From Candidatus Calditenuis fumarioli (GTDB lineage Archaea; Thermoproteota; Nitrososphaeria_A; Caldarchaeales; Calditenuaceae): a DNA stretch of 24,000 nt. Within the stretch, counting starts at the first letter, position 1. Each line of letters starts with the position of its first letter. This document shows positions 6,554-12,863 of this stretch, in pieces. Both the position numbers and the translations under genes were made by a program. The notes beneath the pieces were generated by a model that ran no database searches, was not told the origin of the DNA, and saw only the letters and a list, made by a program, of their open reading frames with translations. The stretch is from the NCBI GenBank assembly GCA_030059665.1, contig JANVYR010000002.1, positions 480,617 through 504,616 of the forward strand, read 5' to 3'.

Positions 6554-6602
6554 CGGGCAACGACACTTTCCAGCTAACCACTTGGCTCAATCTCAAGGCG
6601 CG

Positions 6603-9600
6603 CTAATTCTTCGTTAATGCCCCATTAGCCACCGCCTCCCTGATGTGCATCAGGACGTCTTCAATCACGCCCTCGGGGTTGATCCACCACTCGCTCGACC
6701 AGATCCTGTATATCCTCCAACCCAATCTCTCGAGGTGTCTCTGCCTGATCCAGTCCCTCTCCCGAGCTGTCCTGTGACTGTGGTACAGCCTTCCGTCGCA
6801 CTCTATCCCCAAGATGAACCGGCCGTTATGCAAGACTCCTATGTCGATCCTGTACCTTCCCACCCCGACCTGAGGGACGAGTTCCACCTCTTTGTTCAAT
6901 CCCTCATTGGTCAGGGCCGCCTGCAGACGTTTGAAGACCTCCTCCTCAAAGGGCGAGTCGAAAGGCTCTATGTGTGGATGTGAAGCTCCTCCCCTTTCGG
7001 CGTACTCCAAAAAGTCCCTCAGGACCCTTACGCCACGCGGGTCGTTGTCGTTAACCCTGATCATGTCGTATTTCATTGACGAGACGACCCATAGCATCTT
7101 CCTGGCTCTGGATATCAGGACGTTGATGCGTCTCTCTCCGCCTTCATTATTGATCGGCCCGAACGTCTTGCGCACCACTCCTTCGACCGGTCCGTAGGTC
7201 ATGCTGATTATCACGAGGTCTGCCTCCCTTCCCTGCACCGTCTCCAAATTCCTGACCAGCAGCCTGCCGTCCTCTTCCATCTCATCGATCAGATCGGCGA
7301 CTTCCCTCTCGCGATAGGGTAATGGAACGGTCAGGTGCTTCGCGTACCTGAAGGCCCTGAGCCTTTCCCTGTCCATGGGGCCCCTCCGATCAGATTGGGA
7401 TTGTGCCTTGTAGTCCTCGATGAGACCCTTTATTGCGTCCTGCTGCCTCTCGTTCATCGCCACTATCAGGATGCTCTTGTATTCCTTCGATTTCACCGCC
7501 TCGATGAGCCGCCAAAGAACTACTGCTGCCTCGTTCGGATTTACACCGGTTTTCGATATGTAGTTGCCGTTTTCGACGAAGAAGAACCGCACCCTCCTGT
7601 CATTAGGATCTGCTGAGGGATACACCACCAGACGGTTGTCGTAAAAATAAGCGTTGGAGAACGCGATGAGCGATTCGTGCTCTCCTCTGTAGTACCACCT
7701 GAGCCACTCCTCGCCGAAGACCCTGAAACCTGAAGAGTTGGTGTTGAGACATGCCTCCAGCAGACCCTCGGGAGTTTCGATTTCCTCGCCCTCCTCGTCC
7801 TCCTGCTGCTCGATCCTTCTCGTGAAGTAGTCCGTGGGTGGCATCTGCTGCTCGTCGCCGACTACTATGACCTGACGGCCTCTCGCTATTGCGGGGAGTG
7901 CTCGCTCCGTTTGCACCTGTGACGCCTCGTCGAAGACCACCACGTCGAAGAGCTGACCCTTGAGACCCCTCAGCAGCGTGGATACCATAAGAGGAGTCAT
8001 GATCAGGACGGGTTTGACCAGCAGTATCTCGTTTAAGTGGTCACGCATGATGCGGACGAGGGGGCGCCTCCTTCTGATCTTGAGCTGGTGGGCTGCGAGT
8101 TCCCTTAGCCTCATTATTGGACCTTTGAATAGCCGCGGACCACCGGGCAACGTTCTAAGCCCTAAGTTCAGTCTGATGGTGTGGATGACCTTGCTCCTCA
8201 ACGCGAGCGCTGCCAGCGCCACACTTCGGCCTTCTCCTAAGCGCTGCCCATCTCCATGTGTGTAGAGGCCATCGTAGTAACCGATGAGCTTCTGCATCGC
8301 TCCCTTAGGGCCCTCACGCACCTCGCTCAGCAGGCTTACGAGTGCCCTCCTCAGCTTATTACCCGACCGCTCGTAAGCGACGATAGATTCCCAGACCTCC
8401 GTGAGCTCGTCGAACGAACCGAAATTCTCAAGCAGTCTGTCAACGAAGCGCGAAAATTCCCGGTCGGCGATAACCCCTGCCAAGTCTAGGAGACGCTGAA
8501 GCTGAATCCCGAAGCTATCGCTTTCAGCCAGATCTTCTAGCACTATGACTGTGCGGTCGAGCAGCTCGGGGAGTACCAAATCCTTCCGGACGGCTTCCGC
8601 GTCAATAAGCCACTGCAGAAATCCACGCAGATCGCCTAGTCTCTTAGCGAGGCCCTGCAGGTCCAGCTCGGTATCGAAGAACTGCTGGGCGTACGCGAGC
8701 AATTCGTCCTCACCATCTGGAGATGGTTCGAATCCTAAAGCTTCGAGAGCGCGCTCACGACCATCAAGCAGTCTCCGCAGAGCCCTTTCTAGTTCTATTG
8801 TTGGCATCTTGTCTACTGCATGTCCCAGGAGCTGCCTGAGCTCGTTCACAAGTTCCTCCCTTAGATTCGAGGCATACTCGAGTTCGGAGAGCGTTCTATC
8901 CCTCTGGTAGTAGAGCTGACGTTTGATCTCTTTACGAGCGGTATCCGGTTCTATGCCGTACCTCCTCAGCTCGTGGGCCCACTGAGCGAGATGCCTGTGT
9001 CCCAGTAAAATCGTCTTGATTCTCGAGATCAGCCCCCGGGGGAAGAGCCTCATCATCAACTCATCTATGTCTTTCACCTCTTGGCTGAGATGATCGATCT
9101 TTCCATCCAACTCGAGGATCTGACGTGTGAGCTCCAGAGCGCGCTGCAACTTTCGTATGCTCAGCTTCACTTTCAGACCGTCCGTCACAACGTTCAGCAG
9201 CTTCACGCATTCACCGACACTCCTTTGGCCTTGAAGCCAGTTTAACAACCTCATTGATGAGGCGAGGTAACTTATCGCAAGAGACAGCTCCTCAGCGCTA
9301 GGATTCTGCTCCAGCCCGAGCCTGCTTCGGAGCCAGGCGACCGTCTGAAACAATGCGGGATCTAGGGTTCTCTGGCCTGTCTCTTCCCTTAGCTCAAAGG
9401 CGCTGAGTATCGCAGCGGAGTACTTCTGTTCTTCGAACCATCTGCGTACCGTATCCCTACCATGCTCCGCGAGAAGCTGCCGTAAAACCTGAACCTTTTC
9501 ACGCTTCTCCAGTAGCGCCTTGCTAGCGATTGCGAGGTCGTGTCTCATCTCGTTGCCTGAGACCAGGGCCAGATACTCCGAGTAGCGACCGTAGACGTTC

Positions 9601-12831: not shown

Positions 12832-12836
12832 CACGA
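12807..12836. repeat. Direct repeat copy 2 (candidate att site)
   Basis: Identical over 25 nt to 11205-11229, then C+CACGA versus T+CACGA-type continuation (one indel). The GC-rich flank to its right contains CTTTAATC about 24 nt upstream of the fragment's position 1, a possible original tRNA promoter. Confidence 0.9.
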
Positions 12837-12863
12837 ATTTCAACGCGCCGCTGGATTAAAGGA

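Follow-up and report, generated by a model that had tools for sequence, protein, structure and literature searches.

A 24,000-nt stretch of Candidatus Calditenuis fumarioli (JANVYR010000002.1, positions 480,617-504,616; hereafter the window, in whose numbering all positions are given) contains a segment of low GC content at 6554-12837, in which a large helicase-nuclease gene and a small insertion with a single open reading frame (ORF), ORF313, lie on the two sides of a tRNA-Lys(UUU) gene. Directly downstream of ORF313, the insertion carries a predicted structured RNA, two loop strands of which match the tRNA gene that the insertion interrupts. In the reading that we consider fairly probable, the segment is a composite, consisting of a stand-alone helicase gene and an RNA-guided tRNA insertion element of ~1.63 kb that seeds introns.

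In the 16 genes flanking the segment, GC content ranges from 0.631 to 0.675 and GC content at third codon positions (GC3) from 0.82 to 0.93. The corresponding values are 0.567 and 0.694 for the helicase gene (6603-10925, minus strand) and 0.495 and 0.615 for the ORF313 gene (11549-12490, minus strand), and the stretch to the right of the tRNA (11230-12806) has a GC content of 0.479. In 1-kb windows, mean GC is 0.649 outside the segment (standard deviation 0.018, minimum 0.581) and 0.546 inside (maximum 0.606). For tetranucleotide usage, the correlation with the background amounts to r=0.84 in the helicase and r=0.15 in the right part, as compared with 0.975-0.989 for three control blocks, and the ratio of AGA to AGG codons is 25:68 in the helicase and 15:10 in ORF313, other genes of the window having 0-3 AGA codons each. 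These window-wide counts bear out the drop in GC and the shift in arginine codons that an initial annotation of the DNA had described, the former lying far outside local variation. Also supported is its view that the segment is compositionally foreign and devoid of housekeeping genes, and that the two sides of the tRNA, differing in GC and 4-mer usage, fit separate acquisitions. Its designation as a tRNA-anchored island is correct for the right 1.6 kb, which are bracketed by a repeat at the tRNA, but the 6.3 kb as a whole do not form one island, the helicase being unbracketed: the only direct repeat of a tRNA end brackets the right part, none encloses the helicase segment, and the copy of the tRNA-Lys 3' end that had been suggested as a possible boundary mark is found neither at the left boundary nor in the rest of the window. 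Because the halves differ in GC and 4-mer usage, and because the right half has boundaries of its own and the left half has none, the region is best explained as a composite of two unrelated acquisitions, one on each side of the tRNA-Lys(UUU) gene.

The tRNA-Lys(UUU) gene, with an encoded CCA end, occupies 11104-11229 on the minus strand and is interrupted twice: exon 1 (11205-11229) is followed by a 30-nt hairpin intron at position 24/25 (11175-11204; recognised from sequence, inverted-repeat arms and fold), exon 2 (11161-11174) by a 19-nt intron at the canonical position 37/38 (about 11142-11160), and exon 3 (11104-11141) completes the gene. All exon boundaries and that of the canonical intron come from manual reading. 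Rfam alone finds the tRNA (RF00005, 11107-11229, minus strand, 40.6 bits), ARAGORN detecting none in the window; the Rfam match rests on a mis-registered alignment, in which the hairpin is treated as the anticodon arm. The intron-bearing tRNAs at two related loci, L031 (11077-11182) and L035 (1327-1455), are missed by ARAGORN, and by Rfam even at E≤0.01, and were therefore read by hand; tRNAs of this kind are probably under-counted in annotations of metagenome-assembled genomes (MAGs).

Exon 1 recurs as an exact 25-nt direct repeat (11205-11229 and 12807-12831, spacing 1602), the second copy being part of a displaced, intron-less tRNA-Lys 5' fragment (12805-12831, minus strand; tRNA positions 1-26) that has a TTTAAT box of its own upstream and is found in all related contigs. 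Read along the tRNA strand, the arrangement is thus fragment, foreign DNA, TATA-like box, copy of tRNA positions 1-24, hairpin intron and remaining tRNA, the insertion measuring ~1.63 kb (about 11175-12804). The TATA-like box (TTTTAAATAG, 11252-11263, minus strand) lies about 30 nt upstream of the tRNA start and within the inserted DNA; a TTTAAAT box is also present in L030, L031, L035 and L037. At the opposite end, a non-coding left arm (12491-12804, minus strand) begins with GCCGGCTTTAGAA (minus strand), which resembles tRNA positions 27-39 when compared with L031 and L040: the left ends imitate positions 27-31 or beyond, with CCCGG in L031, GCGG in L040 and GCCGGCTTT in the window. Beside related elements, the tRNA-Asn, -Thr and -Arg genes likewise have homologous hairpins at position 24/25, and the hairpin intron appears to be delivered with the element; that it is removed from the transcript is assumed because these tRNAs are indispensable, and also on the basis of an annotation of 2012 (see below). 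The tRNA-Lys gene and the duplicated tRNA 5' end of the initial annotation are confirmed by these features, and what it had listed as a small single-ORF insertion is truly mobile DNA that has inserted into a tRNA gene. What the initial annotation had overlooked are the introns of the tRNA, the kind of protein that the ORF encodes and the guide RNA.

ORF313 is predicted to consist of a RuvC-like domain, a coiled-coil and an all-helical Nop-like domain, based on profile comparison, AlphaFold2 and Foldseek; its conserved core begins near M62. No match exists in Pfam, PADLOC, PHROGs or NCBIfam, the Pfam models PF01548 and PF02371 not being reached even at E≤10. A word-indexed search of 5.8 billion clustered proteins returned only two close relatives, and an exhaustive profile search 88 distant ones. 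The AlphaFold2 model was computed from a family alignment of 35 sequences, which raised the predicted local distance difference test score (pLDDT) to 86, with a core above 95, from the 58 obtained with the three sequences of an earlier alignment. All 12 Foldseek matches with E<0.002 are ISCro4, IS621 or TIGR-TasR structures (probability 1.0, TM score about 0.5), the TasR structure 9mty being matched at E=1.5e-4 with probability 1.0; the next match (E=0.03, probability 0.28) is read as noise. At the sequence level, the PDB sequences matched by the family profile include TasH, in its Nop region (E=3e-6), and IS621 (E=0.007, with KSDENDA aligned to KTDTVDA). The most frequent weak Pfam match in the family is DEDD_Tnp_IS110 (PF01548; 6 of 35 members), and one relative, P0092, carries PF02371.

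Four aspartates, D69, D104, D142 and D145, are conserved at the RuvC acidic positions, and the model thus appears to share with the IS110 enzymes an N-terminal DEDD/RuvC-like domain with four acidic residues. The C-terminal half of the model is all-helical, and the stretch aligned to YESGSS of IS621 is a variable-length loop that has no conserved serine in the family. In IS110 enzymes, the catalytic serine lies on a β-sheet that Nop5 lacks (Vaysset 2024); as judged from the model, the catalytic condition of ORF313 resembles that of Nop5 and TasR rather than that of the IS110 enzymes. Values of dN/dS between 0.18 and 0.24 indicate purifying selection. An 8-residue gap (SYCW--LNK) was considered as the mark of a dead copy, which was dropped because it falls in a variable-length loop that is also missing in several relatives. 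The possibility of a split or remnant SSV-type integrase was likewise dropped, as the ORF stops short of the att sites and its fold differs.

The predicted structured non-coding RNA of ~115 nt starts 4 nt after the ORF313 stop codon (11430-11544, minus strand). According to consensus folds, it is composed of a long terminal stem, a 13+13-nt internal loop, a 3-bp inner stem and a distal hairpin. Its sequence is conserved in all close relatives, the loop strands being the variable part. Across seven sequences, 96.3% of the alignment cells in the consensus stems are paired, as compared with 30-53% in slid controls, and 7 pairs show compensatory changes, as compared with 0-3. No tandem or direct repeat array was found in or near the element, which contains a single RNA unit. 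A second conserved RNA structure or a second guide loop was not found, the left arm having been searched less than exhaustively.

Comparison of the loop with the tRNA suggests that its two strands are guides. Guide 1, the 5' strand (GAAGAGCGACGAG, 11503-11515, minus strand), reads GAAGAGCGACG in the window and equals the sense strand of the spliced tRNA-Lys at positions of about 19-29, a stretch that runs from the last part of the D arm over the 24/25 intron site into the first part of the anticodon stem; as it is identical to the tRNA sense strand, its pairing partner would be the bottom DNA strand. The 3' strand, guide 2 (GTTAAAAGCCCAG, 11460-11472, minus strand), is antisense to the anticodon arm, as the reverse complement of tRNA-Lys positions 29-39 (GGGCTTTTAAC), and its pairing partner would be the top strand. 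The guides abut and jointly tile 17-22 contiguous bp of the intron-less gene, one guide per DNA strand.

In six loci, the guides track the identity of the neighbouring tRNA, which is Lys, Asn, Thr(GGU) twice, Thr(UGU) or Arg. Guide 2 of the window, at Lys(UUU), is GTTAAAAGCCC, antisense to GGGCTTTTAAC; at the Asn(GUU) gene of L031 it is TTAACAGCCG, antisense to CGGCTGTTAA, and at the Arg(CCU) gene of L040 TTAGGAGGC, antisense to GCCTCCTAA. The two Thr(GGU) loci, L030 and L035, the latter from a second lineage, have TTACCAAGCC antisense to GGCTTGGTAA and TTACCAAGC antisense to GCTTGGTAA, respectively, and the Thr(UGU) locus L037 has TTACAAGGCC antisense to GGCCTTGTAA. When the guides 2 of five loci are cross-tabulated with the tRNAs, each matches its own tRNA over 9-11 nt, as compared with 5-6 nt for a tRNA with another anticodon. 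Between L030 and L037, the guides change with the tRNA and the rest of the RNA is nearly identical.

Two loci in which the native and the element-borne copies differ indicate which allele the guides describe. In L040, the displaced native fragment is GGGCCCGTGGCCTAGAAGGATAAGGCGGCGG, as opposed to ...GCTCAGCTTGGACAGAG-intron-CGGCGG in the 5' module that the element bears; guide 1 (ATAAGGCGGCG) agrees with the native copy at 11 of 11 positions and has no match to the module. In L031, guide 1 (TAGAGCGCC) matches the native fragment, which has a T where the module has an A. Because guide 1 follows the native displaced copy where the copies differ, the guides appear to describe the gene before insertion. 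After insertion, the hairpin intron splits the guide-1 site in the working tRNA, in the window between GAAGAG and CGACG, and the fragment keeps the guide-1 site without the guide-2 site; for these two reasons, neither junction would be a complete target.

The insertion type itself has been described before. In a Caldiarchaeum population, the tRNA-Thr(GGU) locus was found in three alleles (Sugahara et al. 2012, PLoS One 7:e32504, PMC3293823): (i) an intact gene with one intron; (ii) a 5' fragment (positions 1-27), a 1,868-bp insertion with an 813-bp ORF (270 aa, 'b') and a rebuilt tRNA with a newly gained second intron, at 24/25; and (iii) two pieces 500 kb apart. A pNOB8-type attP/attB event was proposed, with an attP site carrying the intron; the ORF was labelled 'DNA-binding/recombination', and no RNA was reported (PMC3293823). 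A 270-aa relative of ORF313, P0004 of L035 (42-43% identity; E=6e-58 against the three-sequence family profile), adjoins a tRNA-Thr(GGU) with introns at 24/25 and 45/46, and its matching length together with the tRNA anatomy suggests that it is ORF 'b'. The N-terminal 60 codons of ORF313 (12308-12490) are GC-rich inside the AT-rich element and are conserved at the protein level with L030; the L035 counterpart is non-coding and similar in nucleotides (for example, gcccatcggggaatc), and L031 lacks the stretch. Judging from these sequences, 12308-12490 may be a second functional RNA or a DNA site instead of a coding sequence, and its counterpart may be a part of the 'region a' described by Sugahara et al., 545 bp that are repeated upstream of the ORF; the L031 element has only about 170 bp upstream of its ORF.

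Relatives bearing the RNA were located with a DNA pattern of the RNA stem. In L030 and L036, the module of ORF, RNA and tRNA terminates a larger block, which encodes a DUF87 ATPase and helix-turn-helix proteins. In L031, L040 and L035, the 24/25 intron is present in the rebuilt tRNA and absent from the displaced fragment. Four distant members, L041 (3320-3660), L032 (1315-1590), L043 (1150-1260) and L034 (960-1110), have RNAs of the same stem/13-22-nt loop/stem type with non-tRNA loops, so that the family is not limited to tRNA genes: in L041, a near-copy of the composite target (12/14) is located about 230 nt past the RNA, the same distance as that of the tRNA site in the window, and in L032 a partial guide-2 match, ATTCCACC, lies about 165 nt downstream. 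Neither the ORF313-type protein nor the RNA was found in viral contigs. A low-GC gene for a LAGLIDADG_3 endonuclease of 306-307 aa is located, in convergent orientation, just downstream of the element-bearing tRNA-Thr of L030 (11343-12266) and tRNA-Asn of L031 (11258-12178); both contigs end there, which suggests a repeated sequence. The window has no such gene, and the helicase occupies that side of its tRNA.

Comparison among strains and species addresses the stability of the locus. Nine contigs that are 99.8-99.97% identical to the window (from NCBI MAGs and two JGI metagenomes) all carry helicase, tRNA and insertion: at the level of strains, both the helicase and the insertion at the tRNA are fixed, in a neighbourhood that is variable. 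The only polymorphism of this region among the strains is a separate segment of 2,421 bp that is absent from the window and present in seven of the nine (L001-L005, L008 and L009; 7209-9629 in L001), with its break point in the window between 12861 and 12862; L006 and L007 part from the window there as well and end inside the segment. It contains a low-GC ORF377, ORF100, ORF69 and a truncated, GC-rich gene similar to 5-formyltetrahydrofolate cyclo-ligase, of which a 99-aa N-terminal half remains that stops at the old tRNA promoter; its junctions share only short similarity (CAGGTGATC / CAGGATCAGG), and ORF377 has no match in Pfam, NCBIfam, PHROGs or the PDB. In a species-level genome set, the ligase is most similar (78% identity) to that of a Candidatus Calditenuis MAG, L010, followed by other Caldarchaeales. 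L010 retains the left-hand synteny pepM50-orf246-AspRS-DeoC-lig and has, after lig, a tRNA-Glu(CUC) and unrelated genes of normal GC. The low-GC segment is missing at this place in L010, and nine of nine near-identical contigs carry it. As synteny of the right flank is lost in L010 as well, presence or absence of the segment cannot be scored cleanly against this genome.

The left part is occupied by the Hhe/ProA-like helicase-nuclease gene (6603-10925, minus strand; 1440 aa), which was recognised with Pfam, PADLOC and NCBIfam. The protein has the Hhe/ProA architecture, with a DUF4011 domain, a superfamily 1 helicase (AAA_11/AAA_12) and a C-terminal endonuclease of the MTES_1575/DUF559 type (Pfam). 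It is matched by PDC-S37 (E=4e-181) and Hhe (E=5e-106) in PADLOC, and by ProA (1.3e-179) and Hhe (2e-152) in NCBIfam, the latter two below the curated cut-offs. The closest non-self homologues show 35-51% local identity; the nearest relatives are a handful of proteins of ~1,390-1,410 aa, one of them from a Nitrososphaerota MAG, and the more remote ones form a very large bacterial DUF4011/DUF3320 family. The Nitrososphaerota homologue, P0099, adjoins type I cas1-cas2-cas4-cas3-cas5-cas7 genes and a BrxL fragment. By domain content, the helicase is most likely a sporadically distributed defence-type gene with an anti-virus role, which is best explained as having been acquired on its own; nothing links its acquisition to the tRNA. 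In comparison with known anti-phage Hhe/ProA proteins, it likewise unites DUF4011, superfamily 1 helicase and C-terminal nuclease in one chain and has a homologue in a defence neighbourhood, but it is archaeal, shorter (1440 aa versus about 1800-2200), without DUF3320 and far below the equivalog cut-offs. This half of the segment is an ordinary defence-type accessory gene.

The right half could have arisen in the following manner: A ribonucleoprotein of ORF313 and the RNA, if the latter is expressed and bound by the protein, would recognise an unoccupied tRNA gene and break it near positions 25-31, whereupon the element would be joined into the broken gene. Its right end would bring a promoter, the copy of tRNA positions 1-24 and the hairpin intron, such that a tRNA is restored that is functional and can be spliced; left behind as the displaced fragment would be the 5' part of the native gene with its promoter, and neither of the resulting junctions would be a full guide target any more. 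The chemistry may consist of a TasR-like double-strand cleavage of the target, possibly also of a target-mimicking donor junction, followed by joining or repair. On the strength of the model, cleavage by the RuvC site with subsequent joining or repair is favoured over serine-mediated strand exchange, since the serine apparatus appears to be missing, there is a single guide loop, and the end of the fragment varies between loci.

The main rival to this mechanism is a one-loop version of bridge recombination, that is, a true IS110/IS1111-type element, in which a bridge RNA follows the ORF and a circle is inserted by conservative strand exchange at a short core, here CG at tRNA positions 25-26, the donor junction being read by the same loop or by a second RNA not found so far. 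The predicted fold of ORF313 matches IS621 and ISCro4 as well as TasR, the RNA is situated downstream of the ORF as in IS1111 and follows the same logic of a 5' loop strand for the bottom and a 3' loop strand for the top DNA strand, and a native 5' fragment together with a rebuilt tRNA is what a single reciprocal exchange with a circle would produce. The imitation of the tRNA by the left end would make a circular junction target-like, and the L030 module stands at the end of a larger, plasmid-like element. Nevertheless, we regard this explanation as rather unlikely, given the missing conserved serine and C-terminal β-sheet, the one guide loop in the conserved RNA, guides that abut instead of sharing a 2-nt core, and Pfam IS110 models that ORF313 does not reach. 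Classical attP × attB recombination by a conventional integrase, the pNOB8-like plasmid-remnant model of 2012, would turn the matches between RNA and tRNA into by-products of att duplication; although it accounts for tRNA-gene integration, it is very improbable, as no tyrosine or serine integrase domain occurs in or near the element at any locus, and as the guides are loop segments of a structure that compensatory changes have preserved, one sense and the other antisense, changing with the tRNA while the remaining RNA is nearly constant, with guide 1 copying the native allele and not the tRNA module of the element.

Least credible of all is the possibility that the RNA guides box C/D-type 2'-O-methylation of the neighbouring anticodon loop and that ORF313 is a domesticated, immobile Nop5-like protein, an assignment prompted by the Nop-like domain, the antisense guide 2 and, in some copies, the box C-like word GAUGAAG and the box D-like word CUGAGG. 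It was dropped: guide 1 has the same sense as the tRNA and is unable to pair with it, and the D box is not conserved, the CUGA word being missing in L030, L037, L035 and L040 and sitting in a stem. The RuvC acidic residues are retained, moreover, the unit belongs to a compositionally foreign insertion that is accompanied by a displaced tRNA fragment, and some relatives have non-tRNA guides. As regards the segment as a whole, its contiguity as a low-GC block between host-like genes and the absence of the block after lig in L010 would also suit an acquisition of 6554-12837 as one island, in a single event at the tRNA. This is improbable in view of the strong difference between the halves in GC and 4-mer usage, the complete boundaries of the right half as opposed to none for the left, and the related elements that adjoin other tRNAs without any helicase.

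Several observations weigh against the composite, RNA-guided reading. The exact guide matches are short (8-11 nt), and the evidence comes from seven RNA sequences and six tRNA-linked loci, some of which are close relatives. In the window, the fragment matches guide 1 for only 8 nt, followed by two mismatches, and the terminal stem of the RNA has a 1-nt deletion; because of these mismatches and the deletion, the window copy may be old or decaying. L037 and L038 have the same block, RNA and tRNA module, retargeted to Thr(UGU), without the ORF, and in L037 (3018-3860) the guide RNA directly follows a 237-aa HVO_A0114-like ORF; such ORF-less derivatives may be non-autonomous elements that are served in trans. 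The displaced copy ends at tRNA position 26, 27, 30 or 31 depending on the locus, and neither an empty tRNA-Lys site nor a circular junction was seen among the sequences compared; at the putative circular junction, only short and inconsistent sub-terminal inverted repeats were seen, on which no claim is based. The sequence-level links of ORF313 to IS110 and Tas proteins are weak, so that the case depends on the predicted structure, and neither a donor loop nor a serine nucleophile appears to be at hand for joining in a copy that is circular or carried by a plasmid. The hairpin intron folds into a relaxed bulge-helix-bulge only (exon GAG pairs with intron UUC, followed by AA|C). On the helicase side, the ProA and Hhe equivalog scores of 600 and 510 bits compare with NCBIfam cut-offs of 1500 and 2000, respectively.

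Apart from the segment, the window shows a second dip in GC (0.54) at 16470-16780, which corresponds to an AT-rich leader and a mini CRISPR array. The repeat GTGATCCCGAGAGAGGGAGTTGAAAG (16687-16712) is followed by a 43-nt spacer and a degenerate repeat (16756-16779); there are no cas genes in the window. One extra repeat-spacer unit is present on the leader side in L003, and a short indel distinguishes L001 and L002 from the window at this place, which indicates that spacer content differs between near-identical strains. A run of 100 N at L003 3091-3190, a scaffold gap or masking inside the CRISPR region, renders an apparent duplication of window 16687-16813 in L003 uncertain. A solitary CRISPR-repeat-like sequence, TGATCTCGAGGGAGGGAGTTCTGAAGG, is located in the left arm of the element (12663-12689, plus strand) in all related contigs and is 18/20 identical to the start of the host-array repeat. 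A lone host-type repeat on a mobile element recalls RNA-based anti-CRISPR decoys.

How archaeal tRNA genes gain introns at odd positions and become split has been a question since the late 2000s. The Caldiarchaeum study of 2012 tied such an intron to an insertion, without the identity of the element or the basis of its site choice; the sequences considered here suggest that target choice is written in a small RNA reading both strands of an intact tRNA gene. If the element does home into tRNA genes by means of such an RNA, rebuilding the gene and leaving a hairpin intron in it, it would be the long-sought vehicle by which non-canonical tRNA introns and scattered tRNA fragments are gained and spread among Thermoproteota and Caldarchaeales, it would provide a natural role for a TasR-like nuclease, and in evolution it could stand between guides of a single unit and bridge RNAs with two loops. 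It would also be a naturally retargeted system, with Lys, Asn, two Thr and Arg targets within a few relatives, and a compact one from a thermophile (about 260 aa and 115 nt), which is testable with one protein, one RNA and two DNA duplexes.

Among the known systems, RNA-guided homing offers a possible working analogy only, with an unrelated protein family and RNA: TnpB and IscB nucleases, as reportedly described by Meers and colleagues in 2023, cut the unoccupied site, repair copies the transposon in, and the occupied site is immune. Elements with tyrosine integrases (SSV- and pNOB8-type) resemble the window element in their integration into tRNA genes, the rebuilt tRNA and the fragment left as a direct repeat; unlike them, it has no such integrase domain in ORF313 or its neighbours, an apparently RNA-written choice of target and an intron in the element-borne copy. 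With the IS110/IS1111 family, represented by IS621 (Durrant et al. 2024, PMC11208160), it shares the RuvC-like, coiled-coil and Nop-like parts of the predicted fold and a structured RNA in the non-coding end; in the bridge RNA of IS621, too, the 5' strand of the loops pairs with the bottom and the 3' strand with the top DNA strand. It differs in having one loop instead of a target and a donor loop, in guides that abut instead of overlapping on a core dinucleotide, in the absence of the catalytic-serine β-sheet and of matches to the Pfam IS110 models, and in its promoter, tRNA 5' module and intron, with which the target gene would be repaired.

In TIGR-Tas systems, the tandem spacers of the tigRNA address both strands of a contiguous target of ~18-20 bp; a TasR with an active RuvC domain is known from a Thermoproteota archaeon, and the natural role of TIGR was stated to be open (Faure et al. 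2025, PMC12045711). Likenesses to TIGR-TasR are a RuvC and Nop protein of about 300 aa without a serine site and guides for two strands, the two-strand pairing being seen in the six loci at the sequence level only. The differences are that TIGR-Tas arrays consist of repeat units with two ~9-nt spacers, as opposed to a single unit with 13-nt loops in a long stem, and that the window unit forms part of a mobile insertion whose natural target, tRNA genes, is defined. Tas and IS110-Nop5 papers do not describe tRNA-targeting elements (PMC12045711; Vaysset 2024), and no paper in the searchable literature joins Caldiarchaeum with IS110, bridge RNA or tigRNA.

The closest precedent is the tRNA-Thr(GGU) insertion of Caldiarchaeum subterraneum: both occur in Caldarchaeales and comprise 1.6-1.9 kb of foreign composition between a fragment and a rebuilt tRNA, with a 24/25 intron and a single ORF of 260-313 aa on the tRNA strand. 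The window element differs in its target, tRNA-Lys(UUU), and the predicted RuvC-Nop fold and the dual guide are additions made here. It is filed as a member of the Sugahara family and as a variant within the RuvC-Nop RNA-guided superfamily; it has neither the serine and two loops of IS110 nor the arrays of TIGR, yet shows the features common to both. That it represents a third working branch of this superfamily, next to the IS110 bridge recombinases and TIGR-Tas and distinguished by a single tandem-guide RNA, homing to tRNA genes, rebuilding of the gene and an intron that destroys the guide site, seems to us evenly poised between true and false. In relation to what was known, the island picture is ordinary and the insertion type has been on record since 2012; new are the predicted fold of the ORF, the putative guide RNA and the matching of guides to their targets.

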